NCBI RefSeq assembly: GCF_001677475.2 | Contig: NZ_CP015229.1 | DNA: 64,000 bases | Strand: one strand, 5' to 3' | DNA from: Escherichia coli | GTDB lineage: Bacteria; Pseudomonadota; Gammaproteobacteria; Enterobacterales; Enterobacteriaceae | Position numbers and translations under genes: made by a program | Notes under the pieces: generated by a model | The model's input: the letters and a program-made list of their open reading frames with translations, nothing else | Database searches by the model: none | Told to the model about the DNA's origin: nothing | Shown: positions 1 through 35,472 of the stretch, piece after piece | Layout: every line of letters starts with the position of its first letter | How positions within the stretch are numbered: the first letter of the stretch is position 1

Positions 1-15
1 AGAAAATATTGAAAA

Positions 16-2088
16 TTATTGTGTGTAAATGTCTCCCTTTAAAAAGTCTGGCCAGTTTTTTTCAAAGTAAATACCGTTAATACACGGTTGCATACGTAAA
101 GACTTTACTTCGGTAATAAAAGAACCTTGCGAATATTGAATTGTTAATTTGTGATTTTTATCTTCAGCGAGTTCAGAGCGAAAACGCCATTCTTCTTTTA
201 CGCCGCGACGAGTTTGTGGTAGGCATTTGCCTTGTGGATCAATAACCATCCGCGCCCCACGACTGCCGCCACCAGCATCAATATAATGCGTTAATTGTGT
301 TAATACCGCGGCAGAAGTCAGCGCCATATGCCGCCACATAAACAGCTCGGAAACTTCACCCACATGTTTGATTGCCAATCCATGCCGTTGGACAAATTCG
401 TTCAATAGCAGGGCATCGCGAGTGGCGCGTCGGACTTTATCGGCATGGCAAATAAATCCCGCATAGTCAGACATTCGTGCCTGAATTTTTTCTCTCACAA
501 CCGACAACGGCATCCCGGTCCCGTTATCGTGCGCCTGAGTAATGATCTCTCTTATAGAAGCCAGTGCCGGAGCTGCCAGCTGTGCTATATCTCCATCAAT
601 ATTCCGCTTTTGCGTGCAACCAATAAAACGTGCCAGACGCACGGCAAAAACCTGCCCGGCATTCAATGCCGCACCACCAGGGCGAGTGACGCCGTGTGTG
701 CCAGCAACTTCCCCCACTGCAAAACAACCGGGCAGAGATGTTTGTCCCCAGATATCCACTTCAATGCCGCCATTCATATGCTGATTATTCATGGCAAACT
801 GCAATGGCTGCGTGGTGAGATCGTAACCGTGCATCTTATACAGCGAGATAGACAGCGGATTCATTCGTTGCAGTCGTTCGATGGGCGATGGCGCCAGGGC
901 GTCGTTATTTTCCAGATACGCGCGAACGTCGTCGTCCAGTCGTTCTAATGAGAATGGCAGGTCACCCGGCACAGGTTCAGGATTGCGATTGAAATCCATA
1001 AATACCTGACGCCCTGATTGCTGCTCTTGCGCCACCGCCATATCTAACAAGCTGGAGCCAAAATCCATTACCCGCGTGGCGTGGAACGGCCACTGATAGC
1101 CTTTACGGAAGATGTTTGAAGCCAGCTCCTGGGTGGTGCGATAGTAATCTGCGAGGAAGTTATACTCGTTGCCCTCGGCATCCACGGAATAGATATATGG
1201 GATCACTTGTACATAGGTGCCGGACAAATTCCACGGAAACGTGCTGCGCGGCGTGCCTATACCAAACTGGCTTTCGGTCAGATTAGTTAGTGTCAGGCCT
1301 TCCTCCAGCGCCAGCCCCAGCGAGCCAAAACATTTGTGTGGGTACACACTGTCGCGATAAAGCTCGCCCGGCCCGCCTGTTGCCAGTACCACATTGGGCG
1401 CAGTCACAATTGCCAGCCCCCACGGGTTATGGGCGCGGGAACCGGTTGCGAGGATAGCCCCGGCCACACGATCTTCGCCGTTTTCACCGCGTTGATGCAG
1501 CAGTTTAATCACCGTTGCACTGGTCAACAGTGGGATGGCGAGGCGCTGCACTTCTTCGAGCAATACTTTCACCATCAGACGAGAAGTGCGCGGCCCACAG
1601 GAGGTTGCGCGTCCGGCTTCGTCATGGTCGGTCTGATAACGGAGAATTGCACCATAGCGATCTTCCGGTAATTCCAGACCGAGATATTGCAGCCCGCCAA
1701 GGGTATGTAGGGAACCGACCGCTTCGACATACGCCGTGTCGTGATCCATCGCACCGCCGCTCGCCAGTGCTTCAGCAAGTTTTGCGAAGTTATCGCCGTT
1801 GCCCGCCGTTGCGGCGGTAAACAGCGTCTGTTTATCGGAACCGGAGCAGGCCGATGTTCCCATGTATAACCCGGCGGTGGCGATTAGCACATTTTGCTGG
1901 CGACGTTTCAGTTCAACCGCCGCACGTAATCCTGCCGCGCCGCTACCAACGACCAGAGCATCTGTTTGCCAGAGCGGGTAATCAACACCGTCCACCGTGA
2001 CAATTGACGTTGGCTCTGCTGACACAAAACCCTTCGGGAAAGTGACGTGCGTCAGCGCATCGAGGATGGCGTCATCAGTCTGGCTCAT
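16..2088 (-). CDS. FAD-dependent oxidoreductase, fumarate reductase/succinate dehydrogenase flavoprotein-like (KstD/TcuA-type), 690 aa
   Basis: Full-length ORF; Rossmann motif VVGSGAAG about 45 aa from the N-terminus followed by a GTSACSGS motif; start overlaps the stop of the upstream CoA-transferase gene by 4 bp. Confidence 0.7.
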   Translation of the reverse strand: MSQTDDAILDALTHVTFPKGFVSAEPTSIVTVDGVDYPLWQTDALVVGSGAAGLRAAVELKRRQQNVLIATAGLYMGTSACSGSDKQTLFTAATAGNGDNFAKLAEALASGGAMDHDTAYVEAVGSLHTLGGLQYLGLELPEDRYGAILRYQTDHDEAGRATSCGPRTSRLMVKVLLEEVQRLAIPLLTSATVIKLLHQRGENGEDRVAGAILATGSRAHNPWGLAIVTAPNVVLATGGPGELYRDSVYPHKCFGSLGLALEEGLTLTNLTESQFGIGTPRSTFPWNLSGTYVQVIPYIYSVDAEGNEYNFLADYYRTTQELASNIFRKGYQWPFHATRVMDFGSSLLDMAVAQEQQSGRQVFMDFNRNPEPVPGDLPFSLERLDDDVRAYLENNDALAPSPIERLQRMNPLSISLYKMHGYDLTTQPLQFAMNNQHMNGGIEVDIWGQTSLPGCFAVGEVAGTHGVTRPGGAALNAGQVFAVRLARFIGCTQKRNIDGDIAQLAAPALASIREIITQAHDNGTGMPLSVVREKIQARMSDYAGFICHADKVRRATRDALLLNEFVQRHGLAIKHVGEVSELFMWRHMALTSAAVLTQLTHYIDAGGGSRGARMVIDPQGKCLPQTRRGVKEEWRFRSELAEDKNHKLTIQYSQGSFITEVKSLRMQPCINGIYFEKNWPDFLKGDIYTQ

Positions 2089-3626
2089 GCGTCCTCCATT
2101 GGCGTAAACAGGCTACTTTCCATCAGGCGCGGCTGGTTGATAATTGGACGGAAAGCCATGAACGGCAGAATGTCGCGGTCAATCTCCACGCCCGGCGCGA
2201 TTTCAATTAATTCAACGCCTTCTGCCGTTAACTGAAACACCGCGCGTTCAGTGATATACAACACTTCCTGACCGCTGTGCTGTGCGTAGGCGGCGCTAAA
2301 AGTGATTTTTTCCACCTGAGTAACCAGTTTAGGGATTTGACCTGACTGGGCGATATGCAAGCCATCTGGCGTTACATCAATCTTGCTGCCTTTGGCGTCG
2401 AACGTGCCGCAGAACACCACCTTACGGGCGTTTTGCGCAATTTCGAGAAATCCGCCGGGGCCAATCAGATTGCCATTGAGATGGGAGACGTTGACGTTAC
2501 CGTACTGATCCATCTCTCCCATGCCGAGGAAGGTGATATCGATCCCTCCGCCACTGTAGAACTCAAATTGATCGAGTGATGGAATAATGGCATCGGCGTT
2601 GCGGGCGCAGCCGAAAAACGCATCATCCAGCATCATACCGTTATGCACGCCTTGCTCGACGCTCAGCCATAAACTTTGGTAAGGCACGCCTTCGCGCAGC
2701 GCTACTCCTGGAATGCCGCCGGGAATACCAAAGCCAAAGTTGGTTGAAGCGCCAGCTACCAGTTCGCGTGCTGCCCGACGGGCAATCAGGCGACGTACCG
2801 GATGACTAACCAGTTCAATAGCGTCGTTAGAACTCAGACGGCGATGTTGGCCGCTGATGGTCAGGTCGTAACCGCCAAGATAGGTTTGTGGCTGTTCGCG
2901 GTGTTCAACGATGCCATCAACCAGAATGCCCGGTAATTTGACTCGGCGTGGTTCAATCGCGCCAGCTTCCAGCACATCGCGTACCTGTACAAACACTTTG
3001 CCGCCGCTGTTGTGTGCTGCCAGCGCCATGGAATAGCTATCCATATCAATCGCTTCTTCTTCAAGGCTGACGTTGCCCCGAGGATCGGCATAAGTGCCAC
3101 GCAAAATCGCGTAATCGACTTTGAAAGGGCGATAACGAAGTTTGGTTTCACCGTCGATTTCAATCAGTTCTACCAGGTCGTCGGTAGTGCATTCATTCGA
3201 CTTACCGCCGCCATTGCGTGGATCAACAAACGATCCCAGCCCAACGTGGGTAAAAAGCCCCGGACGTCCGGCGCCGATCTCCCGTAGCAGTGCCTGAATC
3301 ACGCCACCAGGAAAACAATAGGCTTCAATCGCGTTATTTTTTACCAGCGCCTGCATTTTGGGTGACCAGGTAAAGTGTCCGGCAATAATGCGTTTGAGCA
3401 TTTCAGCATGAGCGAAGCGGTTCGTGCCTTTGCAGTCGCGATCGCCAATGCCCAGCGAGTGGATTAATGTCAGATCGCGCGGGTGTCCGGTTTGCAGGAA
3501 GCGCGCTTCAATGGCTGCCAGAATATGGTCGGCTTCCACCATGCCGCCGCCGTTACCGCTAATGGCAATGGTTGCGCCATCCTGAATTTGCGCCGCCAGT
3601 GCCTCGGCGGTTGTTATCTTACGCAT
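2085..3626 (-). CDS. Family I CoA-transferase (acetyl-CoA hydrolase/transferase-like, fused subunits), 513 aa
   Basis: ORF with N-terminal AISGNGGG and a central glycine-rich region typical of fused CoA-transferases; 9-bp spacing to the upstream gene. Confidence 0.7.
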   Translation of the reverse strand: MRKITTAEALAAQIQDGATIAISGNGGGMVEADHILAAIEARFLQTGHPRDLTLIHSLGIGDRDCKGTNRFAHAEMLKRIIAGHFTWSPKMQALVKNNAIEAYCFPGGVIQALLREIGAGRPGLFTHVGLGSFVDPRNGGGKSNECTTDDLVELIEIDGETKLRYRPFKVDYAILRGTYADPRGNVSLEEEAIDMDSYSMALAAHNSGGKVFVQVRDVLEAGAIEPRRVKLPGILVDGIVEHREQPQTYLGGYDLTISGQHRRLSSNDAIELVSHPVRRLIARRAARELVAGASTNFGFGIPGGIPGVALREGVPYQSLWLSVEQGVHNGMMLDDAFFGCARNADAIIPSLDQFEFYSGGGIDITFLGMGEMDQYGNVNVSHLNGNLIGPGGFLEIAQNARKVVFCGTFDAKGSKIDVTPDGLHIAQSGQIPKLVTQVEKITFSAAYAQHSGQEVLYITERAVFQLTAEGVELIEIAPGVEIDRDILPFMAFRPIINQPRLMESSLFTPMEDA

Positions 3627-3635
3627 ACAATTTCC

Positions 3636-4412
3636 TTAGTGATTATGGAAGCTCACGCTACTTTTTTCGGCAAATGCCTGCGTCGCCTGCTGGCAATCCT
3701 GAGTGGCGGACATTAATCCAGCCAGTAACTGGTGTGGGTATTCAGCGTGTTTATTTTCCAGTGCCAGAATCAGCTGCTTAATATGCGCCAGTGCCACCGG
3801 ACCACATTTTTCCAGCTGCGCTAACTGGTTCGCCATCCAGCTTTCCACCTGTTCTTTTTCTACTACTTCATCAATTAAATTCGCCGCCTGGGCTTCATGC
3901 GCCGTCAGACGTTTACCTAGCATCAGCATCTGGCGACCGACCACTGGGCCGACCTGATTAATCACGCGTTCAATGCCCATCCAGCCAGGCACCATGCCGA
4001 GCATGACTTCCGGGTTAGAAAATTTCGCGCTGGGGCGAGCGATTCGAATATCGCAGCACAAGGCAAGTTCAATACCGCCGCCGATGGTATGACCGTTGAG
4101 ATTCGCAACCGTTAATTGCGGTAAATTGCGCAGGCGATTAAAAACGTCATTGCCGCGTTTAATCCATTTTCTGCCCATATCTAATGGCGAATAGGCCGAC
4201 CACGATTTAATATCACCGCCCGCACAAAAGAATTTATCGCCGATTGCCGTTAATTCGACTAATCGTAATGTGGTGTCGTTTTCAATTTCATTTAAATAAT
4301 GGTCGAGAGATTCAATCATCTCTTCGTTAATAGCATGACATTTCTCTTCACGGTTCAACGTCAGGCGGCAGGAAGCCGCCGCTCTGCTGAACAGAACGGG
4401 TTGGTCACTCAT
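3636..4412 (-). CDS. Enoyl-CoA hydratase/isomerase (crotonase fold), 258 aa
   Basis: ORF with crotonase-like motifs (FCAGGDI, HTIGGGIELAL). Confidence 0.75.
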   Translation of the reverse strand: MSDQPVLFSRAAASCRLTLNREEKCHAINEEMIESLDHYLNEIENDTTLRLVELTAIGDKFFCAGGDIKSWSAYSPLDMGRKWIKRGNDVFNRLRNLPQLTVANLNGHTIGGGIELALCCDIRIARPSAKFSNPEVMLGMVPGWMGIERVINQVGPVVGRQMLMLGKRLTAHEAQAANLIDEVVEKEQVESWMANQLAQLEKCGPVALAHIKQLILALENKHAEYPHQLLAGLMSATQDCQQATQAFAEKSSVSFHNH

Positions 4413-4421
4413 GATTATTCC

Positions 4422-5264
4422 TTAGCAATAATTCGCGATGCGATCGACGCTAATATCCAGCGTGTTGTTAATATCTTTCTGCCACCAGTACGGTGAGAAT
4501 ATTTCCAGTTCAATAGCGCCATTAAATCCGGCGTTTTCAACCAGTCGACGAATTGACGGAATATTTATCACGCCATCTCCCGGCATTCCCCGGTCATTGA
4601 CCAGATCGGTGGTCGGCACTAACCAGTCGGAAACATGAAACGCGAGAATACGTTTTCCGGCGCGCAGGAGCTGGCTGGCCAGATCCGGATCCCACCAGAC
4701 ATGGTAAACATCCACAGCCACGCCGAGGCCAAATTCGCCATCGGGATCGAGTTCATCACACCAGTCCAGCGCCTGGCGTAACGTGCACAGGCAAGAGCGA
4801 TCGGCGGCGGTCATTGGGTGCAGTGGCTCCAGCGCAATCGGCACGCCAACGTCTTTCGAATGTGGCAGTAACTGGCGTATCCCTTGTTTCACCTGTTCCC
4901 GTGCTTCATACAGATCTTTTGTGCCCTGCGGTAACCCGCCAACCACCTGCATATAACAGGCGGCGTTCAGCACCGCTGCGTCGTCCAGCGCCCGGCGGTT
5001 ATCATCAATTGCCAGTTTGCGTTCCGCCAGCGTCGGCGCGGTGTAGTAGGTGCTACGGCATAAACCGGAAACGCGCATGTTATTGACGGCAAGCTGGCGG
5101 GCGATCTGCTGAAGATCTTCACCCTGCAACTCTCTGCGCCAGGGGGCGATCGCACCGATACCGCGTGCGGCACAGGCATCAATAATGGCGGGTAGCGGCG
5201 TTTTATAGCCCAGTGTTGCGGTATTGATACTGAATAAATCCGGGCGTTGTAACAGATCTCTCAT
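4422..5264 (-). CDS. Sugar phosphate isomerase/epimerase (xylose isomerase-like TIM barrel), 280 aa
   Basis: ORF whose translation resembles the AP-endonuclease-2/xylose-isomerase-like TIM-barrel family. Confidence 0.65.
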   Translation of the reverse strand: MRDLLQRPDLFSINTATLGYKTPLPAIIDACAARGIGAIAPWRRELQGEDLQQIARQLAVNNMRVSGLCRSTYYTAPTLAERKLAIDDNRRALDDAAVLNAACYMQVVGGLPQGTKDLYEAREQVKQGIRQLLPHSKDVGVPIALEPLHPMTAADRSCLCTLRQALDWCDELDPDGEFGLGVAVDVYHVWWDPDLASQLLRAGKRILAFHVSDWLVPTTDLVNDRGMPGDGVINIPSIRRLVENAGFNGAIELEIFSPYWWQKDINNTLDISVDRIANYC

Positions 5265-5273
5265 GATTCAGCC

Positions 5274-6065
5274 TCAGAAGCGCGGCATACTTAAGCCGCC
5301 GTCGATGGCGACCGCCTGACCACAGGTGTAAATCAGTTTACCTTCCGCCATCGCGCGGACGGTGGAGGCAATATCAGCCGGATAACCCCAACGTCCCCAC
5401 GGCACCAGACCTTTGGCAATCAGTTCGTCGTAATAAGCCGTTGCTGGAATAGTCATATCGGTTTTGATGAGACCAGGGCGCACTTCATAGACGCCAATTT
5501 GTTCGTTGCAAAGGCGAGCAGCAAACAGACGAGCAGCGGCAGAAACGGCGGTTTTGGCAATTGTGTATTCGCCGCGATTCATCGCCAGCATGATGGCGTT
5601 GATGGAACTGACAAAAATAATTGAGCGGTGCGGGAATTCTGTTTCTGGTTTTGGCTGTGCGAGCAGACGTTTACTGAATGCCTGTGCAAGGAAGAACGGT
5701 GCGCGGGTGTTAATGGCAATATTTTGGTCGAAGCTGTCTGGTTCCAGGTCGAGAAGGTCACCGCGTTTTTTCACTGAAATGCCTGCGTTGTTGAGCAGGC
5801 AGTCCAGACGTCCCCACTGGTTTTGCGCTGCGTCGAGCATCTCTTCATGCAGGGAGAGATCGCCAACATCGGCAGGGAAGCAAATCACTTCCACGCCTTC
5901 CGCCAGACATTCTTGTTGTGTGACATGTAATTTTTCAACGCTATCGGCATCCGGACGATCATTAATCAGCAGATTAAATCCGCCACGCGCAAGCTCCAGC
6001 GCACAGCCCTTTCCAATACCACGAGCGGCTCCGGTAATCACGGCAACAGGACGAGTGGATTTCAT
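5274..6065 (-). CDS. Short-chain dehydrogenase/reductase (SDR), 263 aa
   Basis: N-terminal TGAARGIG cofactor motif and YxxxK catalytic motif (YTIAK); first gene of the five-gene operon. Confidence 0.8.
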   Translation of the reverse strand: MKSTRPVAVITGAARGIGKGCALELARGGFNLLINDRPDADSVEKLHVTQQECLAEGVEVICFPADVGDLSLHEEMLDAAQNQWGRLDCLLNNAGISVKKRGDLLDLEPDSFDQNIAINTRAPFFLAQAFSKRLLAQPKPETEFPHRSIIFVSSINAIMLAMNRGEYTIAKTAVSAAARLFAARLCNEQIGVYEVRPGLIKTDMTIPATAYYDELIAKGLVPWGRWGYPADIASTVRAMAEGKLIYTCGQAVAIDGGLSMPRF

Positions 6066-6133
6066 ACAATAGCTCTCTTTTTTTGAATTTTGTTTCCTTA
6101 GTGATGATTAGCTTGCGACTGGAGGATAAAAAG

Positions 6134-6155
6134 ATCAACCATCTAGTTGGTTGAT
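6134..6155. promoter_or_regulatory. Perfect 8-bp inverted repeat ATCAACCA-tctagt-TGGTTGAT in the divergent SDR/TetR promoter region; candidate TetR operator
   Basis: Palindrome read directly from the sequence; position between divergently transcribed regulator and operon. Confidence 0.4.
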
Positions 6156-6277
6156 ATGCGATGACGATCACAGGACATTTGATAACCTGATGAAAGTACA
6201 AGTTTTTGCCCTTTTTTCTGAAGCTGAAATCAAATCAGGTTATGATAGTCACCACGAAGAGGTCGTGGGGAAGCGTT

Positions 6278-6925
6278 ATGTATATTGATACCAGCAACGT
6301 ACAGAGCCTGAAGGAAAAGCTGCTGTTATGCGCGGTTAATGAATTTGCCGAATATGGTTATGAAGGGGCCAGGGTCGATAATATTGTTAAGTCTGCGGGG
6401 TGTAGTAAACAGACGGTTTATCACCACTTTGGTAATAAAGAAAATTTATTTATTGAAGTACTGGAATATACCTGGAACGATATTCGAAAAAAAGAAAAGG
6501 CCCTTGATTTCTCAGATCTTCCGCCACAAAAAGCCATTGAGAAAATTATTGATTTTACATGGGATTATTATATTGCTAATCCCTGGTTTTTAAAAATTGT
6601 GCATAGTGAAAATCAAAGTAAAGGTGTGCATTATGCAAAATCACAGCGTCTCTTAGAAATTAACCATGCGCACTTGCAGTTAATGGAATCCTTATTGGAG
6701 GAAGGGAAGAAACACAATATTTTTAAGCCAGATATCGACCCATTGCAGGTGAATATTAATATTGCTGCGCTTGGGGGATATTATTTGATCAACCAGCATA
6801 CGCTTGGCCTGGTTTATCACATCAGTATGGTTTCACCCCAGGCACTGGAAGCCAGACGTAAGGTCATCAAAGAGACGCTCCTTAGCTGGCTTTTGGTTGA
6901 CCCCTCATCTACCGCGCACGAATAA
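6278..6925 (+). CDS. TetR/AcrR-family transcriptional regulator (intact counterpart of the K-12 ytfA fragment, by recollection)
   Basis: N-terminal HTH region ([27 protein letters not shown]); ATG at 6278 preceded by a GGGGAAG Shine-Dalgarno-like sequence; the track ORF begins further upstream at a TTG. Confidence 0.75.
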
Positions 6926-13450: not shown

Positions 13451-15403
13451 TTACTTACTCAAATCCACCTGATAAATCGCAAACCCGATATCATCGGTCG
13501 CGACTTTATTCATCGGATATTGCCCTTTCTCTTTAATAAACGCTGCGGCTTTATCTGATGGAGAGGTTTCGAAACGGATATCCAGTTTCTTATCGCCAGC
13601 AATCGGTGCTAAACGCCAGTTGTTATCTGCCGCCGGGTGAATTTCCCCCGCACGTTTCGACTCATCAGCAATCCACGCTGCCAGCACCGAGCGGTTCTCA
13701 TCCGGTGAAGCAAAAGCGATATGGCTGTCGCCCGTACCAGCAAATTTGCCGCCGTAAGCGCGATAGTTATTGGTGGCAACGAGGAACATGGCGTTCGGAT
13801 CAATGGGTTTACCGTTAAAGGTCAGGTTCTTAATCCGCTCTGCATTGGCATTAACCACCTGACATTCACCGTCATAACGGGCGGGTTGGGTAACATCAAT
13901 CTGATAATTCACACCATCAATAACATCAAAGTTATAAGTGCGGAAACCATCCCAGTTGATGAGTGACTGTGGTTTCGTGCTGTTAGGATCAATCTGGTTA
14001 AACTGTCCGGCGGAGCACTCCAGCCACTCTTTCACCTCTTTACCGCTGGCTTTCACCACAATCAGCGTATTGGGGTAGAGATAAAGATCGGCGGCATTAC
14101 GGAAGGTCAACTGGCCTTTTTCCACCTCCACATAGCTTGCCGGGTCATTTTTGCGACCACCAACTTTAAACGGTGCGGCAGCTGAAAGCACCGGCAGTTT
14201 TGCCAGATCCGGATCGCCCTGAATGTAATGTTCGACATACGCTTTTTGCGCGTTGTTCACGACTTGCACGGTCGGATCGTCCTGCACCAGCGCCAGATAG
14301 CTATACATATTGTCGGCAGATTTACCGATTGGCTTGCTGACAAACTGGCGTGTGGCATCGTGATCGGCTTTGAGTGTTTCTACCAGCTTGCTATCTTCCG
14401 CCGCGAGGGATTTTTTATTAGCGATGTCGTAAATCGGCCGTGCTTCCGCTTTCGCCTGCATCACCTGCCATTTACCGCTGTCATTACTGAGTTACAAGTC
14501 GACCACACCAAGATGATCGCCCCACATGCCCGGCATTACCGCCGGAACACCATTCAGCGTGCCTTTCGCGATATCAGCCCCTTCGATATCAGCAAAATCT
14601 TTACCTGGGAAAACGGCGTGAGCATGGCCAAACATAATGGCGTTAACGCCCGGAATTTCACTGAGGTAATAAACTGAGTTTTCCGCCATCACTTTATACG
14701 GATCGGCAGACAGCCCGGAATGCGCCAGAACGACAACGAGATCGGCACCTTTCTCACGCATTTCAGGCACGTATTTGCGCACAGTTTCTGTTATATCGTT
14801 AACGGTGACTTTGCCGGACAAATTGGCTTTATCCCACCCCATAATCTGCGGCGGCACCACGCCAATATAGCCAATCTTTAACGTCTGTTTTTTTCCGTCT
14901 TTATCGACCACTTCGGTGTCTTTAATTAAATACGGTGTAAACATGGGCTGTTTGGTTTTTGCGTCGATGACGTTGGCATTTACATAAGGGAATTTCGCTC
15001 CCGCCAGCGCATTTTTCAGGTAATCCAGACCGTAGTTAAACTCGTGGTTGCCAAGCGTGCCGACGGTATAGTCCAGCGTATTTAATGCCTTATAGACCGG
15101 GTGAATATCGCCTGCTTTTAAACCTTTCGCCGACATGTAATCTGCCAGCGGACTCCCCTGAATCAAATCGCCGTTATCGACCAGTACGCTGTTTTTCACT
15201 TCATTGCGGGCATCGTTAATCAGGCTTGCGGTACGTACCAGTCCGAATTTTTCCGTAGCGGTGTCTTTGTAATAATCGAAATCCATCATGTTGCTATGCA
15301 GATCAGTGGTTTCCATGATACGCAGATCGACCGTCGCTGCATTTACACTGGCGGCAATCAGCGTGGCCAGGAGCGTTGCGCTAAACTTAATCATCAGGGA
15401 CAT
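13451..15403 (-). pseudogene. cpdB: cpdB (2',3'-cyclic-nucleotide 2'-phosphodiesterase / 3'-nucleotidase) interrupted by an in-frame TAA
   Basis: Two same-frame ORFs (14492..15403 and 13451..14464) separated only by a stop codon at 14492..14494 (minus strand); together they span the full-length protein. Confidence 0.85.
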
Positions 15404-15583
15404 CCTTTTATCATCGGGAATACGAAAGAAAAGGGAGAATAAACGTCTTACTTATAGAACAGTGAAGAATGCCACAATTTTACGCTTTGAAAATGATGAC
15501 ACTATCACAGTTGGCGCATTCATTAACGATAGGGTATAAGTAAAACAATAAGTTAACACCGCTCACAGAGACGAGGTGGAGAA

Positions 15584-20027: not shown

Positions 20028-20204
20028 ATCTTATCCGACCTTTCAGGCCAGATCCTCGGAAGGGGAAGTTGATTAATTTGTGTGAAATACACATTGAAAG
20101 CCGATTCGAAGAAAGTGAACCGGCATTTTCAGTGGCTAGTATAGCGTAAGGTACTGTAAAGCCGCCAGAGTGTTAAAATTCAGACTGCTGATAAATGAAA
20201 AACT

Positions 20205-27047: not shown

Positions 27048-27057
27048 TAATAAAAGC

Positions 27058-27084
27058 ACGCCACCTTCGGGTGGCGTTGTTTTA
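27058..27084 (+). terminator. Rho-independent terminator after ytfP
   Basis: ACGCCACC-ttcg-GGTGGCGT hairpin followed by TGTTTT. Confidence 0.7.
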
Positions 27085-27371
27085 TGCGATGTATCTCGCG
27101 ATTTTTTTTGTAACTTTCCCATCTTTTGCTTTTCTCTCCGAGCCGCTTTCCATATCTGCAATCGCATAAAAAACTCTGCTGGCGTTCACAAATGTGCAGG
27201 GGTAAAACGGGGGCACGCTTTGAACGGTGAGTATGAGTGAGGTCGGCTAACTTCCAGCAAGTGGCTATGAACAGCAAAATGGTGGTCGAGTTTAGCTTGT
27301 TCTTACCGTTCAAGCCTTTCAACTGCTGAAAATAATAATAGTGGAGTAGATAGTTTATAAATTGCGGGCAT

Positions 27372-27410
27372 AAAAAAACCCTTACTAACCGAAGCCCGGT
27401 GTTCAGGGTT
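27372..27410 (-). terminator. Rho-independent terminator after ppa
   Basis: AACCCT...AGGGTT hairpin followed by a T7 run on the minus strand, just 3' of the ppa stop. Confidence 0.65.
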
Positions 27411-27426
27411 ATTACGCTAGAAGAAC

Positions 27427-27957: not shown

Positions 27958-28266
27958 GTCTGTTTCCTTTAAAAATATGTGGCAAACAAGTGCCGAGTAT
28001 TATAGCCAACTCGCGCCGAATGTCTTCGCTTGTTTTCGTCTTCATTTTCCTTTTTCGCCAGTTTTAAGACGGTATGCAGAGCAGAAAAATCCATAACCGT
28101 AGCCGCATTTTTCATAGTGAGATGAAAGCGATTACAAACTTGTGATTAACGTTTTATTTACTTTTTTGAAGTGTGATGTAACGCAATCCGTTACATAACG
28201 AATTGTCTATAGTTTTTTCGCGAACATCTTTTCACCAATAATAATTACCCCGACGAGGACAACCCT

Positions 28267-28677
28267 ATGTGGAAACGCTTACTTGTAGTCTCTGCAGTCT
28301 CGGCAGCCATGTCGTCTATGGCGTTGGCCGCTCCTTTAACCGTAGGATTTTCGCAGGTCGGATCGGAATCCGGCTGGCGCGCAGCAGAAACCAATGTGGC
28401 GAAAAGTGAGGCCGAAAAACGCGGAATTACGTTGAAAATCGCCGATGGTCAGCAAAAGCAGGAAAACCAGATTAAAGCGGTACGTTCCTTCGTTGCACAA
28501 GGGGTGGATGCGATCTTTATCGCTCCGGTGGTTGCGACGGGTTGGGAACCGGTATTAAAAGAGGCGAAAGATGCCGAAATCCCGGTCTTTTTGCTCGATC
28601 GTTCCATCGATGTGAAAGACAAATCTCTCTATATGACCACTGTTACTGCTGACAACATCCTCGAAGGTAAGTTATGA
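28267..28677 (+). pseudogene. ytfQ: ytfQ 5' fragment (galactofuranose-binding periplasmic protein), truncated by an IS insertion
   Basis: Signal peptide and N-terminal 135 residues up to ...ILEGKL, then a stop created at the IS junction. Confidence 0.85.
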
Positions 28678-28765
28678 GACGACAATAACTCAGTCCGCCT
28701 GGCGCCGATTATTCTGGCCGGTTTTGTAACCTGAGTGTCATTTACATGATCCAACAGGAAATGGC

Positions 28766-30265
28766 GTGACGCTCAATACTTCTCAGGTCAGTTACTATAT
28801 GACTCAGCGTAAGAAAGGTATAACTCAGCATATCTCGGCCATGAAGGCTGGTATCTCAGTCCGTTCTGGTCGTCGGATCGAAAAAGGAGAGTGGGCAAAA
28901 AACAGTGTTCGGCACTGGCGCACACGCAAAGATCCTCTGGAAGCTGTGTGGGACAGCATGCTTGTTCCTCTGTTGAAAGAGAGGCCGGCTCTGACACCAA
29001 CAACTCTACTGGAGATGCTACAGGATAAATATCCCGGCCAGTACCCCAACAGCCTTCGAAGAACAATGCAACGGCGGGTTCGCGAATGGAAACTACAGTA
29101 TGGTACAGAGCAGGAGGTCATGTTCCGCCAGCAACATCAGCCCGGCCTGCGAGGCCTGTCGGACTTTACTGAACTGAAAGGTGTAGTTGTCACCATCGCC
29201 GGTAAGTTGTTGGCGCATAAGTTGTATCACTTCCGTCTGGAATGGAGCCACTGGAGCTGGATGCGGGTTGTTCTGGGTGGTGAGAGCTTCTCTGCTCTGG
29301 CTGAAGGCCTGCAGGAAGCCCTCGGACAACTGGGCGGAGTGCCGGTAGAACATAAAACGGACAGCCTGAGGGCAGCATGGAAACAACAGGGCGAAGATGG
29401 ACGCCGCGAGCTGACTGAGCGTTATGCTACTCTCTGTCAGCACTACGGAATGCAGGGCGTACACAATAATGCCGGTCGGGGCCACGAAAATGGCTCGGTT
29501 GAAAGTGCCCACGGACATCTGAAAAGGCGTATCTGTCAGGCGCTGATACTGCGGGGCAGTAACGACTTCAGCACCATAGAAGAATATCAGGCCTTCATCA
29601 CTCAGCAGGTTATGCGGCACAACCGTAACAATCAGGATCTGGTCAAGGAAGAACGTCTTCATCTGAAACCGCTGCCGCTTCGTCGCAGTGCTGACTATGA
29701 TGAGCTGACTGTGAGGGTTAGTCGCAGCAGTACCATCAATGTGAAGCACGTCGTCTACAGCGTACCTTCCCGGCTTGTAGGTCAACTGTTACGGGTCAGG
29801 TTATGGGACGATCGTCTGAGCTGTTACGTTGGCAGCAGCGAGGTCATGAGCTGCCCTCGCGTCAGACCAGAAAAAGGGAAGACGCGGGCCCGTCGTATCG
29901 ACTTCCGACATGTGATCGACAGTCTGGCAAAAAAGCCCGGTGCGTTCTGCCATGCAACGCTGAGAAATGACATCCTGCCGGACGATGAATGGCGGAGGCT
30001 GTGGCGTCGCTTATGTAATCATCTGGAGCCCGATATGGCAGGAAGGCTGATGGTACATGCCCTGAAACTGGCTGCAGGATACGACGATATCTCAGTCGTG
30101 GCAAAAGGTATGGAGCAGATGCTGAATACCCCGGGAAACGTGGATCTGCACCGGCTGATGCGCTTCCTGGGTATAAAAGAAAAGGCGTTGCCGGTAGTCA
30201 ATGTGATACAGCATAACCTGAGCAGTTATGAGCAACTACTGCGTGGCAAGGGAGGTTCGCAGTGA
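28766..30265 (+). CDS. istA: IS21-family transposase IstA
   Basis: 499-aa ORF (GTG start) with an N-terminal HTH-like region; followed by overlapping istB. Confidence 0.8.
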   Translation: MTLNTSQVSYYMTQRKKGITQHISAMKAGISVRSGRRIEKGEWAKNSVRHWRTRKDPLEAVWDSMLVPLLKERPALTPTTLLEMLQDKYPGQYPNSLRRTMQRRVREWKLQYGTEQEVMFRQQHQPGLRGLSDFTELKGVVVTIAGKLLAHKLYHFRLEWSHWSWMRVVLGGESFSALAEGLQEALGQLGGVPVEHKTDSLRAAWKQQGEDGRRELTERYATLCQHYGMQGVHNNAGRGHENGSVESAHGHLKRRICQALILRGSNDFSTIEEYQAFITQQVMRHNRNNQDLVKEERLHLKPLPLRRSADYDELTVRVSRSSTINVKHVVYSVPSRLVGQLLRVRLWDDRLSCYVGSSEVMSCPRVRPEKGKTRARRIDFRHVIDSLAKKPGAFCHATLRNDILPDDEWRRLWRRLCNHLEPDMAGRLMVHALKLAAGYDDISVVAKGMEQMLNTPGNVDLHRLMRFLGIKEKALPVVNVIQHNLSSYEQLLRGKGGSQ

Positions 30266-31017
30266 GCAATATCCATCACCTTGAACATAGCCTGCGTAAA
30301 CTACGCCTGACACGAGTTGGAGCTGAATGGCACGCTCTGGAAAAACGAGCGCTGGCAGAAGGCTGGACACCATCGCGCTATCTTCTGACGCTATGCAATG
30401 AAGAACTCCTGTGGCGCGAGAGTGAAAAACTGCGTCGTTATAAAAAGGAGGCCCGGTTGCCAGTTGCCAAAACGCTGAGCGAATACGACTTCAGTCAGGT
30501 GCCGGAACTGAATGGAGCTCAGTTCCGGCAACTCTGTGAAACGACAGACTGGGTTGATGCAGGAGAAAACGTTCTGCTGTTCGGAGCCAGCGGGTTGGGG
30601 AAAAGCCATCTGGCGGCAGCGATCGTGGATGGCGTAGTAGGTCAGGGCTACCGGGCCCGGTTCTACAGCGCAGGAGAGCTGTTGCAGGAACTACGTAAAG
30701 CCAGAGCTCAGTTGAAACTGAATGAGCTGCTACTGAAACTGGATCGCTACCGGGTGATAGTGGTGGATGATCTTGGCTATGTCAAACGCGATAGTGCCGA
30801 AACGGGTGTGCTGTTCGAGTTAATAGCGCATCGCTATGAACGTGGGAGCCTGGTGATAACCAGTAACCATCCGTTCAGCATGTGGGGCAGCATCTTCGTG
30901 GATGAGACTATGGCGGTGGCTGCGGCAGACAGGCTGATCCATCACGGATATATGTTCGAACTGAAAGGGGAAAGCTACAGGAAAAAGACAGCGAAGGCAG
31001 TAACAAGCGCGACTTGA
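30262..31017 (+). CDS. istB: IS21-family helper ATPase IstB
   Basis: 251-aa ORF with Walker A GASGLGKSHLA; start overlaps the istA stop. Confidence 0.85.
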   Translation: MSNIHHLEHSLRKLRLTRVGAEWHALEKRALAEGWTPSRYLLTLCNEELLWRESEKLRRYKKEARLPVAKTLSEYDFSQVPELNGAQFRQLCETTDWVDAGENVLLFGASGLGKSHLAAAIVDGVVGQGYRARFYSAGELLQELRKARAQLKLNELLLKLDRYRVIVVDDLGYVKRDSAETGVLFELIAHRYERGSLVITSNHPFSMWGSIFVDETMAVAAADRLIHHGYMFELKGESYRKKTAKAVTSAT

Positions 31018-31084
31018 TGTCGCCCTGAAGGGTGCGGCCAGTATAGTTGGCGCGAGTCGGCAAAACTAGTTGACGTCTAATAGT

Positions 31085-31639
31085 AAGTTGATTGGTGACT
31101 GGCTGGTAAAAGAAGTCAACGGCAAACCGTGTAACGTGGTTGAGTTGCAGGGGACGGTTGGGGCAAGCGTTGCCATTGACCGTAAAAAAGGCTTTGCCGA
31201 AGCCATTAAGAGTGCGCCAAACATCAAAATCATCCGCTCACAGTCCGGTGACTTCACCCGTAGTAAAGGCAAAGAAGTGATGGAGAGCTTTATCAAAGCG
31301 GAAAACAACGGCAAAAACATCTGCATGGTTTACGCCCATAACGACGACATGGTGATTGGCGCAATTCAGGCAATTAAAGAAGCGGGACTGAAACCGGGCA
31401 AAGATATCCTCACGGGTTCCATTGACGGCGTGCCGGATATCTACAAAGCGATGATGGATGGCGAAGCGAACGCCAGCGTTGAATTGACGCCGAACATGGC
31501 AGGCCCCGCTTTTGACGCGCTGGAGAAATACAAAAAAGACGGCACTATGCCTGAAAAGTTGACCCTGACCAAATCCACCCTTTACCTGCCTGATACTGCA
31601 AAAGAAGAGTTAGAGAAGAAGAAAAATATGGGGTATTGA
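31085..31639 (+). pseudogene. ytfQ: ytfQ 3' fragment
   Basis: Reading frame resumes at ...KLIGDWLVKEVNGKPCNVVELQG... and runs to the native stop; the track ORF begins at a TTG inside the IS end (31070). Confidence 0.85.
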
Positions 31640-31649
31640 GGGACATCAA

Positions 31650-31805
31650 TACCTGATGCCGACTTGTACGCCGCCGGATAAGGCGTTTATGCCGCATCCG
31701 GCGGTTGTGTGCGGATGCCTGATGCGACGCTGGCGCGTCTTATCATGCCTACGAGTTCGATACTCTGTGTAGGCCGGATAAGGCGTTCACGCCGCATCCG
31801 GCAGT
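31650..31805. repeat. REP/BIME cluster (at least three palindromic units)
   Basis: Repeated GCCGGATAAGGCG...GCCGCATCCGGC-type units between ytfQ and ytfR. Confidence 0.75.
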
Positions 31806-31839
31806 TGTGCAGTACCGGACTTAACACCATGCACAATCT

Positions 31840-31879
31840 GTCCCCTCGCCCCTTCGGGGAGAGGGTTAGGGTGAGGGGG
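31840..31879. repeat. GC-rich hairpin repeat, copy 1 (TCCCCTCGCCCCTTCGGGGAGAGGGTTAGGGTGAGGGGG)
   Basis: A near-identical element recurs at 41350..41389. Confidence 0.6.
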
Positions 31880-31951
31880 ACAAACGGCGCAGCTCTTAAC
31901 ATCAGGCACGATCTATTCCCAGACTTTTAGAGCGTGGCTAAGGGGGAAACC

Positions 31952-33454
31952 ATGACGACCGACCAACACCAGGAAATCCTCCGCACCGAAGGATTAAGTA
32001 AATTTTTCCCCGGCGTCAAAGCGTTAGATAACGTTAATTTCAGCCTGCGCCGTGGCGAAATCATGGCGCTGCTCGGTGAAAACGGGGCGGGAAAATCAAC
32101 GCTAATCAAAGCATTAACCGGTGTATACCACGCCGATCGCGGCACCATCTGGCTGGAAGGCCAGGCTATCTCACCGAAAAATACCGCCCATGCACAACAA
32201 CTCGGCATCGGCACCGTCTATCAGGAAGTCAACCTGCTACCCAATATGTCGGTTGCTGATAATCTATTCATAGGTCGCGAACCCAAACGTTTCGGCCTTC
32301 TACGCCGTAAAGAGATGGAAAAGCGCGCCACCGAACTGATGGCATCTTACGGTTTCTCCCTCAACGTGCGCGAACCGCTCAACCGCTTTTCAGTCGCGAT
32401 GCAGCAAATCGTTGCCATCTGCCGGGCTATCGATCTCTCTGCCAAAGTGCTGATCCTCGATGAACCCACCGCCAGTCTCGACACCCAGGAAGTGGAATTA
32501 TTATTTGGCCTGATGCGTCAGCTTCGCGATCGCGGCGTCAGCCTGATCTTTGTCACTCACTTTCTCGATCAGGTCTATCAGGTCAGCGATCGGATCACCG
32601 TCTTACGCAACGGCAGTTTCGTAGGCTGTCGGGAAACGCGCGAGCTACCGCAGATCGAACTGGTAAAAATGATGCTGGGGCGCGAGCTGGATACCCACGC
32701 GCTACAGCGTGCCGGGCGAACGTTACTGAGCGACAAACCCGTTGCCGCGTTTAACAATTACGGCAAGAAAGGAACGATCACGCCGTTTGATCTCGAAGTA
32801 CGCCCCGGCGAGATCGTCGGCCTGGCTGGCCTGCTGGGTTCCGGGCGTACCGAAACCGCCGAAGTGATCTTCGGGATCAAACCCGCCGACAGCGGCACGG
32901 CGCTGATCAAAGGCAAACCGCAAACCCTGCGATCGCCACATCAGGCTTCGGTTCTTGGCATCGGCTTTTGCCCGGAAGACAGGAAAACCGATGGCATCAT
33001 CGCCGCCGCCTCGGTGCGGGAAAATATCATCCTGGCGCTACAGGCCCAGCGCGGCTGGCTGCGACCAATTTCCCGCAAAGAACAGCAAGAAATTGCCGAA
33101 CGCTTTATCCGCCAGCTTGGCATTCGCACCCCTTCCACTGAACAGCCGATAGAGTTTCTCTCCGGTGGCAATCAGCAAAAAGTGTTGCTCTCACGCTGGC
33201 TGCTCACCCGACCGCAATTTCTGATCCTCGACGAGCCAACCCGCGGCATTGATGTTGGTGCCCACGCCGAGATCATTCGCCTGATTGAAACGCTGTGCGC
33301 CGACGGTCTGGCGCTGCTGGTGATCTCCTCCGAACTGGAAGAGCTGGTAGGCTATGCCGATCGGGTGATCATCATGCGCGATCGCAAACAGGTGGCGGAG
33401 ATCCCGCTGGCAGAGCTTTCCGTTCCGGCGATCATGAACGCCATTGCGGCGTAA
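31952..33454 (+). CDS. ytfR: ABC transporter ATP-binding protein YtfR (tandem ATPase domains)
   Basis: Two Walker A motifs (GENGAGKST, GLLGSGRTE); start taken at the ATG at 31952 (500 aa). Confidence 0.9.
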   Translation: MTTDQHQEILRTEGLSKFFPGVKALDNVNFSLRRGEIMALLGENGAGKSTLIKALTGVYHADRGTIWLEGQAISPKNTAHAQQLGIGTVYQEVNLLPNMSVADNLFIGREPKRFGLLRRKEMEKRATELMASYGFSLNVREPLNRFSVAMQQIVAICRAIDLSAKVLILDEPTASLDTQEVELLFGLMRQLRDRGVSLIFVTHFLDQVYQVSDRITVLRNGSFVGCRETRELPQIELVKMMLGRELDTHALQRAGRTLLSDKPVAAFNNYGKKGTITPFDLEVRPGEIVGLAGLLGSGRTETAEVIFGIKPADSGTALIKGKPQTLRSPHQASVLGIGFCPEDRKTDGIIAAASVRENIILALQAQRGWLRPISRKEQQEIAERFIRQLGIRTPSTEQPIEFLSGGNQQKVLLSRWLLTRPQFLILDEPTRGIDVGAHAEIIRLIETLCADGLALLVISSELEELVGYADRVIIMRDRKQVAEIPLAELSVPAIMNAIAA

Positions 33455-33464
33455 GGAGAACAGT

Positions 33465-34490
33465 GTGATGCCTCAATCTCTCCCGGACACCACGCCGCCA
33501 AAAAGGCGCTTTCGCTGGCCGACGGGGATGCCGCAGCTGGTAGCGCTATTGCTGGTGCTGCTGGTCGACAGCCTGGTGGCCCCGCATTTCTGGCAGGTGG
33601 TGCTTCAGGATGGGCGTTTGTTCGGTAGCCCTATCGACATTCTTAACCGTGCGGCTCCCGTTGCGCTGTTGGCTATCGGAATGACGCTGGTGATCGCAAC
33701 AGGTGGGATTGATCTCTCTGTGGGGGCGGTGATGGCTATCGCCGGAGCCACAACGGCTGCGATGACGGTCGCGGGATTCAGCCTGCCGATTGTTTTGTTA
33801 AGCGCCCTGGGCACCGGCATCCTGGCGGGATTGTGGAACGGCATACTGGTAGCGATCCTCAAAATTCAGCCGTTTGTCGCCACCTTGATCCTGATGGTCG
33901 CCGGGCGCGGCGTGGCGCAACTGATCACCGCCGGGCAGATCGTCACGTTTAACTCGCCGGATCTCTCATGGTTTGGCAGTGGATCGCTATTGTTCCTGCC
34001 AACACCAGTCATTATTGCGGTACTGACGCTTCTCCTGTTCTGGCTGTTGACCCGCAAAACGGCACTGGGGATGTTTATCGAAGCCGTTGGTATCAACATT
34101 CGGGCGGCAAAAAATGCCGGGGTAAACACGCGAATCATCGTCATGCTCACCTACGTGTTGAGCGGGCTATGTGCGGCGATTGCGGGCATTATCGTGGCGG
34201 CGGATATTCGCGGTGCCGATGCCAACAACGCCGGATTATGGCTGGAGCTGGACGCAATTCTCGCGGTGGTGATTGGCGGCGGATCGCTGATGGGCGGGCG
34301 CTTTAACCTGCTGCTTTCAGTGGTGGGGGCGCTGATTATTCAGGGAATGAACACCGGAATTTTGCTTTCTGGCTTTCCGCCGGAGATGAACCAGGTCGTA
34401 AAAGCGGTGGTGGTGCTTTGCGTGCTGATTGTCCAGTCGCAACGCTTTATCAGTCTGATTAAAGGGGTACGTAGCCATGATAAAACGTAA
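33465..34490 (+). CDS. ytfT: ABC transporter permease YtfT
   Basis: Hydrophobic ORF; AAGGAG Shine-Dalgarno-like sequence before the GTG/ATG at 33465/33468. Confidence 0.88.
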   Translation: MMPQSLPDTTPPKRRFRWPTGMPQLVALLLVLLVDSLVAPHFWQVVLQDGRLFGSPIDILNRAAPVALLAIGMTLVIATGGIDLSVGAVMAIAGATTAAMTVAGFSLPIVLLSALGTGILAGLWNGILVAILKIQPFVATLILMVAGRGVAQLITAGQIVTFNSPDLSWFGSGSLLFLPTPVIIAVLTLLLFWLLTRKTALGMFIEAVGINIRAAKNAGVNTRIIVMLTYVLSGLCAAIAGIIVAADIRGADANNAGLWLELDAILAVVIGGGSLMGGRFNLLLSVVGALIIQGMNTGILLSGFPPEMNQVVKAVVVLCVLIVQSQRFISLIKGVRSHDKT

Positions 34491-35472
34491 TTTGCCACTG
34501 ATGATCACCATCGGCGTCTTTGTGCTGGGCTATCTCTACTGTCTGACCCAGTTTCCCGGTTTTGCTTCCACAAGAGTGATCTGCAATATCCTGACCGATA
34601 ATGCCTTTCTTGGGATAATCGCCGTTGGCATGACCTTTGTGATCCTCTCCGGTGGGATCGATCTCTCCGTCGGTTCGGTGATCGCCTTTACTGGCGTGTT
34701 TCTGGCAAAAGTGATTGGCGATTTCGGCCTCTCGCCGCTGCTGGCGTTTCCGCTAGTGCTGGTGATGGGCTGTGCCTTCGGCGCATTTATGGGGCTTCTG
34801 ATCGACGCCCTGAAGATCCCGGCATTTATCATTACGCTTGCGGGGATGTTCTTTTTGCGCGGCGTCAGCTATCTCGTTTCGGAAGAGTCGATCCCGATAA
34901 ACCATCCCATTTATGACACGCTCTCAAGCCTTGCGTGGAAAATCCCTGGCGGCGGTCGCTTAAGTGCGATGGGACTGCTGATGTTGGCGGTGGTGGTTAT
35001 CGGCATATTCCTCGCGCATCGTACCCGTTTTGGTAATCAGGTATACGCCATTGGCGGCAACGCAACGTCGGCGAATCTGATGGGGATTTCCACTCGCAGC
35101 ACCACTATTCGCATTTATATGCTCTCCACCGGACTGGCAACGCTGGCGGGGATTGTCTTCTCGATTTATACCCAGGCCGGATATGCGCTGGCGGGCGTAG
35201 GAGTGGAACTGGATGCTATCGCCTCAGTGGTAATTGGCGGTACGCTTTTGAGCGGTGGCGTTGGAACGGTATTAGGGACGCTTTTTGGCGTGGCGATTCA
35301 GGGACTGATTCAGACTTACATAAACTTTGATGGCACGCTGAGCTCATGGTGGACGAAAATCGCCATCGGTATTTTGTTGTTTATTTTTATAGCATTACAG
35401 CGTGGATTAACGGTGCTGTGGGAGAATCGTCAGAGTTCGCCTGTGACAAGAGTCAACATTGTGCAGCGATAA
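34477..35472 (+). CDS. yjfF: ABC transporter permease YjfF
   Basis: 331-aa hydrophobic ORF overlapping the ytfT 3' end. Confidence 0.9.
   Translation: MIKRNLPLMITIGVFVLGYLYCLTQFPGFASTRVICNILTDNAFLGIIAVGMTFVILSGGIDLSVGSVIAFTGVFLAKVIGDFGLSPLLAFPLVLVMGCAFGAFMGLLIDALKIPAFIITLAGMFFLRGVSYLVSEESIPINHPIYDTLSSLAWKIPGGGRLSAMGLLMLAVVVIGIFLAHRTRFGNQVYAIGGNATSANLMGISTRSTTIRIYMLSTGLATLAGIVFSIYTQAGYALAGVGVELDAIASVVIGGTLLSGGVGTVLGTLFGVAIQGLIQTYINFDGTLSSWWTKIAIGILLFIFIALQRGLTVLWENRQSSPVTRVNIVQR

Follow-up and report, generated by a model that had tools for sequence, protein, structure and literature searches.

A complete IS21-family element, assigned to ISEc10, interrupts ytfQ within codon 136 in a strain of Escherichia coli

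Two parts of YtfQ are encoded on the + strand of the Escherichia coli DNA considered here (the window, i.e., the whole stretch of 64,000 nucleotides that was analysed), and they are separated by some 2.4 kb of other sequence. The locus raises the questions of what lies between the two parts, at which base the gene is broken, and whether the ABC transporter encoded by ytfQ, ytfR, ytfT and yjfF can be expected to work. Function names for YtfQ and the transporter (galactofuranose binding, import) were taken from NCBIfam and RefSeq annotation. The two parts of the gene were located as follows:

28267–28672, + strand: ytfQ 5′ fragment, codons 1–135 and the first base of codon 136 (NF041827 positions 2–138, E=3.7e-74)
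31089–31639, + strand: ytfQ 3′ fragment, remainder of codon 136 to the stop codon (NF041827 positions 135–320, E=2e-111)

Against the YtfQ equivalog model NF041827 the two halves scored 249.5 and 371.9 bits, respectively, the cut-off for the full model being 510. When the insert and one copy of the flanking duplication were removed (28267–28672 joined to 31089–31639), an unbroken ytfQ of 957 nt and 318 aa was obtained. The reconstructed protein was identical to E. coli YtfQ (WP_000265933.1) at 316 of 318 positions in an end-to-end alignment, and it matched PDB 2vk2, a structure of two lobes that spans residues 22–318, with E=3.5e-193; judged by the equivalog model and the solved structure, it is a full-length YtfQ once the IS is taken out. 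The IS interrupts ytfQ inside codon 136 and has the same orientation as the gene. A split of ytfQ by an istA/istB element of about 2.4 kb, as given in a preliminary description of this DNA, is borne out by the ORFs and by the YtfQ model matches on both sides; its placement after codon 135 was right to within one base, the actual break following the first base of codon 136. The upstream ORF (28267–28677, 136 aa) enters the IS, where its frame reads TTA TGA and ends at the stop codon TGA (28675–28677).

Two genes were found within the insert:

28766–30265, + strand: istA, transposase, 499 aa (1,500 nt), GTG start codon preceded by AGGAA (NF033546)
30262–31017, + strand: istB, AAA+ helper ATPase, 251 aa (756 nt) (NF038214, PF01695, 8q3w)

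A long istA is thus followed on the same strand by a short, overlapping istB, which is the two-gene arrangement of the IS21 family; the GTG start codon of istB overlaps the TGA stop codon of istA (GTGA), and an overlap of this type fits the translational coupling common in that family. The start and length of istA agreed with those given by PGAP for istA in other ISEc10 copies. IstA scored 226.4 bits against the IS21 transposase equivalog NF033546 (cut-off 160, model positions 2–293 of 294) and the score of IstB against NF038214, the equivalog for the IstB helper ATPase, was 266.7 bits (cut-off 200), so that the earlier recognition of an IS21-family istA/istB element was confirmed. The sole Pfam match of IstA was to Mu-transpos_C_2 (residues 311–366). 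Neither the Pfam model rve (DDE integrase core) nor, by sequence and even at E≤10, any solved structure in the PDB was matched by IstA, and for this reason its DDE triad is put forward only as a set of candidate residues picked by eye, namely D133 (SDFTE), D199 (KTDSL) and E246 (GSVES). The NF033546 model, which spans the catalytic core, matched IstA end to end. IstB matched Pfam IstB_IS21 (PF01695) with E=1e-61 and the solved IstB structures of IS5376 (8q3w, 8q4d and 5bq5; best E=3.7e-45, with 8q3w). Its Walker A (GASGLGKS, residues 108–115) and Walker B (VIVVDDLG, residues 165–172) motifs are those of an AAA+ ATPase akin to DnaC and IS5376 IstB. The exact IstA protein was present on 100 contigs and the exact IstB protein on 308; four of the GenBank accessions for IstA have a prefix in common. 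The copy in ytfQ is apparently transposition-competent; the indirect signs of this are the occurrence of its protein variants in many contexts and the de novo ISEc10 insertions reported for CFT073 (PMC7482066).

The element as a whole was delimited as follows:

28673–31082, + strand (same orientation as ytfQ): ISEc10, IS21 family, complete copy of 2,410 bp (full-length matches to annotated copies; ends set by independent copies)

By nucleotide identity the insert is assigned to ISEc10, a known active IS of the IS21 family, of which it is a complete copy. Query positions 1–2409/2410 aligned at 98.5–99.9% with hundreds of PGAP-annotated copies, identity being 98.5% with the CFT073 copy and up to 99.9% with copies in strains OkiPb01695 and RM9088. 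The name ISEc10 rests on copies labelled by PGAP as “IS21-like element ISEc10 family” (transposase and IstB), those of CFT073 included. Under the ISfinder rule, isoforms share >95% of their amino acids or >90% of their nucleotides, and relative to the PGAP-labelled copies the element lies within this limit over its full length. A nucleotide search returned 951 records with ISEc10 sequence in 898 of 5,426 complete E. coli genomes, and some strains carry the element in many copies (up to 14 places per genome). It was also found on 553 plasmids in PLSDB (Salmonella, Escherichia, Klebsiella, Shigella and others), and relatives with 86–88% identity on Salmonella and Morganella plasmids measure exactly 2,410 bp and share the boundaries. 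Elsewhere in the 64-kb window, no second copy of the left-end sequence of the IS was detected.

The ends of the element and the duplicated target were assigned as follows:

28667–28672, no strand: target-site duplication, left copy, GTAAGT (junctions compared with 16 other complete ISEc10 copies)
31083–31088, no strand: target-site duplication, right copy, GTAAGT (junctions compared with the same 16 copies)
28673–28720, no strand: left terminal inverted repeat (IRL), 48-nt arm, 71% complementary to 31035–31082
31035–31082, no strand: right terminal inverted repeat (IRR), 48-nt arm pairing with IRL

For this purpose 18 ISEc10 copies were fetched, eight from complete genomes and ten from places encoding an identical IstA; one was without a recognisable right end, one was a 2,409-bp variant, and the other 16 were 2,410 bp long. 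All 16 of these complete copies started with TATGAGACG and finished with CGTCTAATA, whatever the flank, with TAT at the start and ATA at the finish. Because the other complete copies start in this way, the T at 28673 is a base of the IS, and the element therefore extends from 28673 to 31082; with the left end at 28673, the target duplication is the 6-bp sequence GTAAGT. The right end had been placed correctly at 31082 in the preliminary description, and by the 16 other copies its left end (28674) was off by 1 bp, the full length being 2,410 bp. Its 7-bp duplication GTAAGTT has to be replaced with the 6-bp GTAAGT in view of the ends of independent copies; the additional T had been counted since the IS happens to begin with T, the same base as the native one at 31089. 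The terminal inverted repeats of ISEc10 are imperfect, with TATNAGACGNCAA and GCGCCNANTATNCTGGCCG as two conserved blocks. Pairing was best in the register that places the start of the left arm at 28673 (36 of 57 positions, versus 10–19 in other registers), in agreement with this left end.

Six base pairs is the usual target duplication of ISEc10. Among the 16 other complete copies it measured 6 bp in ten, 7 bp in three and 5 bp in two, and was absent in one; when all 17 other copies with both ends located were counted, the corresponding figures were ten, three, two and two. Three copies with 7 bp are roughly the number that chance extension predicts. Elements of the IS21 family give duplications of 4–8 bp (ISfinder), and both a short duplication and imperfect terminal repeats, as in this family, were found for the copy in ytfQ. 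Base-exact ends drawn from independent copies (2,410 bp, 5′-TATGAGACG...CGTCTAATA-3′), together with the usual 6-bp duplication, are useful for the annotation of junctions, in that an error of one base is avoided.

That a single ISEc10 transposed into ytfQ with its usual 6-bp duplication, splitting the gene in codon 136 and costing the strain this importer, is in our judgement very probable, with little room left for doubt. The steps ascribed to IstA and IstB are inferred from established IS21-family biology. IstB, an AAA+ ATPase whose translation the GTGA overlap would couple to that of IstA, would assemble with ATP on the target DNA and recruit IstA; the latter, a DDE transposase, would bind the imperfect terminal repeats and then cut and join the ends, and repair of the staggered cut would leave GTAAGT in duplicate. 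The upstream ytfQ frame, halted at the TGA two codons past the junction, would give a 136-aa stub that keeps the signal peptide and only part of the N-terminal lobe, and the C-terminal 183 codons would be cut off from the start signals. From this we firmly infer the loss of a functional galactofuranose-binding protein. The YtfQRT–YjfF ABC importer should be non-functional as well, since importers of the ABC type depend on their binding protein.

The remainder of the operon was found downstream of the insertion:

31672–31749, + strand: REP/BIME-type repeat in the 312-bp ytfQ–ytfR spacer (Rfam RF02564 naRNA4, 73 bits versus a gathering score of 59.5)
31952–33454, + strand: ytfR, ABC ATPase, intact, 500 aa (496 of 500 positions identical to the E2865 protein, no internal stops)
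33468–34490, + strand: ytfT, annotated by the galactofuranose ABC transporter family name, intact, 340 aa (339 of 340 identical)
34477–35472, + strand: yjfF, permease, intact, 331 aa (330 of 331 identical)

Comparison with E. coli proteins showed ytfR, ytfT and yjfF to be of full length and free of stops, and their state bears on how far the damage reaches. Only the binding protein would be lost, with little or no polarity, if these three genes were still expressed through read-through from the ytfQ promoter or istAB, or from an outward promoter of the IS. Read-through into ytfRT–yjfF could persist, since the IS points the same way as the operon and a scan of 28000–32100 gave no convincing intrinsic terminator on the + strand. 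In addition, the hexamer TTGACG occurs at 31070–31075, 8 nt from the right end of the IS; however, in a search for an IS21-style junction or outward promoter, no usable −10 was seen by eye 16–18 nt past it, and a promoter scan gave no sigma-70-like site on the + strand at the right end. Downstream of the IS there follow about 560 nt of ytfQ 3′ fragment and then the 312-bp spacer with its REP elements, and the fragment, being untranslated, would favour Rho-dependent termination. Precedents for ISEc10 point both ways: insertions upstream of ampC are cited as raising expression (quoted in PMC7482066), whereas expression was lowered by de novo insertions close to lpp, obtained by experimental selection in CFT073 (PMC7482066), and by the insertion that occurs naturally in the ST131 afa promoter (PMC8764528). 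Continued expression with little polarity is regarded as unlikely, though worth keeping in mind, and polarity on ytfRT–yjfF as plausible. Even if the membrane components were made, an ABC importer deprived of its binding protein would not be expected to work.

The insertion is evolutionarily recent, because neither the reconstructed YtfQ nor the three downstream genes show decay. The comparison with an uninterrupted ytfQ allele that the preliminary description had proposed was run on complete E. coli genomes: a ytfQ match was obtained in 5,424 of 5,426, an uninterrupted allele (no less than 80% of the gene in a single place) in 5,422, and the gene is practically core in the species. ISEc10 in ytfQ was found in none of the 5,426 (no place covering at least 80% of the ytfQ::IS query). 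An identical left junction was present in one NCBI draft assembly (contig NJSK01000019.1, GCA_002516285.1), which is identical to the window over all available 6,468 nt and stops 60 nt into the IS; no literature on this assembly was found. The junction 38-mer is CATCCTCGAAGGTAAGTTATGAGACGACAATAACTCAG, and the exact junction gave no match in 100,044 GTDB species-representative genomes. When the exact 136-aa stub was looked up, the true junction was found only in L010, the contig that stops 60 nt into the IS. Contigs with the same stub were rejected as further carriers: L009 ends where a stretch of N begins, and L011–L016 have native ytfQ and merely stop 5 nt past the site.

The sequences flanking the IS were 98–98.5% identical to E. 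coli chromosomes, which marks the host as E. coli. Sliding identity to E. coli references showed an apparent fall from about 98% to about 91–93% exactly at the IS. The idea that the IS had come in together with foreign DNA was considered and dropped: the SNP-dense patch (ytfQ approximately 324–600) lies on both sides of the IS, so that there is no breakpoint at the element. SNP mapping placed the differences within the patch almost all at third codon positions. At the nucleotide level the ytfQ allele is at most 95.8% identical to that of any of the 5,426 complete genomes, the protein being nearly identical, and it is best described as a mosaic allele with no IS-linked breakpoint. It could be supposed that ytfQ::ISEc10 was a selected event and marks a small clone (the window and GCA_002516285.1) of a lineage that is rare among complete genomes and has an unusually diverged mosaic ytf operon; we consider this very unlikely. 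If it were true, the insertion might represent adaptive loss of galactofuranose/arabinofuranose uptake, or else the co-oriented IS might keep the YtfRT–YjfF membrane components expressed for another binding protein.

A further reading concerns the downstream fragment of ytfQ, which is contained in one additional ORF:

31070–31639, + strand: mechanical hybrid ORF of 189 aa, TTG start codon inside IRR, holding the ytfQ 3′ fragment (six-frame ORFs)

The hybrid ORF that had been described earlier as starting from a TTG in the IS end does exist, as a mechanical ORF beginning at 31070. It is in frame and TTG-initiated, and with its 189 aa it might be supposed to yield the C-terminal part of YtfQ, with a function that is either residual or new; but nothing like a Shine–Dalgarno sequence lies ahead of the TTG (GTCGGCAAAACTAG), a scan for promoter-like sites gave none, and the product would be devoid of the signal peptide and of the N-terminal one of the two lobes seen in 2vk2. 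ORFs of this kind, moreover, come out of any six-frame scan. The hybrid ORF is probably not expressed, and a functional product from it is held to be highly improbable.

An assembly artefact, in which a repeat-induced misjoin would have placed a multi-copy IS into an intact ytfQ, might be suggested by the number of places, up to 14 in one genome, at which ISEc10 is present in some strains and by the breaking of short-read contigs at ISEc10 (L010 stops 60 nt into the IS), but it is scarcely credible, given that the element is flanked by a perfect 6-bp duplication of its typical length, which a misjoin would not make, that both junctions are exact to the base, and that an independent draft assembly has the identical left junction.

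Transposition of one ISEc10 copy into ytfQ is the preferred reading, and no observation spoke against the insertion itself. The allele ytfQ::ISEc10 is ordinary and strain-specific: a known IS has entered a known gene, an event of an already known kind. The strain is predicted to be unable to import galactofuranose through YtfQRT–YjfF, in a species of which ytfQ is essentially a core gene, and ISEc10 has been active recently in this lineage. Beyond the annotation of this strain the insertion has little significance.

In comparison with ISEc10 of CFT073, of ST131 and of many plasmids, the copy in ytfQ has the same length (2,410 bp), the same termini (TATGAGACG...CGTCTAATA), an istA of 1,500 nt, an istB of 756 nt, the GTGA overlap and a 6-bp target duplication; it differs only in its insertion site. 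TG...CA termini are common in the IS21 family, and IS21 itself gives a target duplication of 4 bp; ISEc10, in contrast, has TA...TA termini and a duplication of 6 bp. IS21 (plasmid R68.45) and IS5376 (Geobacillus) resemble ISEc10 in the istA–istB pair, the AAA+ IstB, the imperfect terminal inverted repeats and the short target duplication. For IS5376, IstB and transpososome structures have been solved, and IstB of ISEc10 resembles IS5376 IstB (37–45% similar region, E=3.7e-45), whereas its IstA has diverged too far for a sequence match in the PDB or to Pfam rve. The same element, inserted near lpp in CFT073 (PMC7482066) or into the ST131 afa promoter (PMC8764528), changes the expression of a neighbouring chromosomal gene; those insertions are intergenic or regulatory, whereas the insertion in ytfQ is intragenic and truncates the coding sequence.

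The ytfQ allele that carries the ISEc10 insertion was found to be a mosaic. A dense run of differences lies at gene positions ~324-600, corresponding to window 28590-28672 and 31089-31285 on either side of the element, and nearly all of the changes relative to two E. coli references fall at third codon positions. The two references agree with one another across this patch, where the allele in the window departs from them. Among 5,424 complete E. coli genomes, the highest identity over the whole gene was only 95.8%, and the YtfQ protein was identical at 316 of 318 positions despite this divergence of the gene. A divergence of ~4-5% was likewise recorded for ytfR, ytfT, and yjfF, with ~2% in the flanks. 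An import out of a diverged Escherichia lineage is suggested by these differences.

The contigs with native ytfQ that were retrieved with the 136-aa ytfQ stub (Logan contigs L011-L016, derived from several separate sequencing runs) share one endpoint, at native ...GGCAAGTTGAT. Their common end (position 6410) is equivalent to window ~31093, 5 nt beyond the insertion point in the window, and is devoid of IS sequence. It could reflect either a graph branch where the diverged ytfQ patch starts or insertions in those samples.

The ytfQ-ytfR spacer (window 31640-31951) measures 312 bp, against ~140 bp for its equivalent in strain E2865, and contains repeats of the REP/BIME type. The Rfam gathering score is attained by one of them:

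31672-31749, naRNA4 (RF02564), REP/BIME-type repeat

The ytfP-ppa spacer (window 27048-27426) is a variable hotspot: it is bare (379 bp) in the window and in strain PCP07014, is occupied by the chpS-chpB toxin-antitoxin pair in E2865 and L013 and by a 490-aa ORF in L011, L014, L015, and L016, and holds a P2-like prophage end plus the TA pair in L012.

The target duplication is missing from two ISEc10 copies at other sites, L005 (NZ_AP021946.1) and L021. The L005 copy (2,409 bp) has a frameshifted istB and adjoins another IS21-family istB, an arrangement that suggests insertion into IS copies or recombination between them.

Window 1-6925 is occupied by an accessory metabolic cluster without counterpart at the same place in PCP07014, in which the TetR gene at the cluster site is interrupted by an IS200/IS605 element:

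16-2088, FAD flavoprotein
2085-3626, CoA-transferase
3636-4412, enoyl-CoA hydratase
4422-5264, 280-aa protein without NCBIfam match
5274-6065, SDR reductase
6206-6925, divergent, TetR regulator

A 638-aa ORF at window 56308-58224 gave no NCBIfam match at E<=1e-10. Compared with PCP07014, window 56906-58155 shows divergence (88%) or rearrangement, and the counterpart in that strain is a frameshifted "DNA-binding protein" gene.

The following expected RNA elements, all of them ordinary in E. coli, were located in the window:

15395-15517, ES239 sRNA
20089-20146, minus strand, STnc450 sRNA
48289-48404, Mg2+ riboswitch upstream of mgtA
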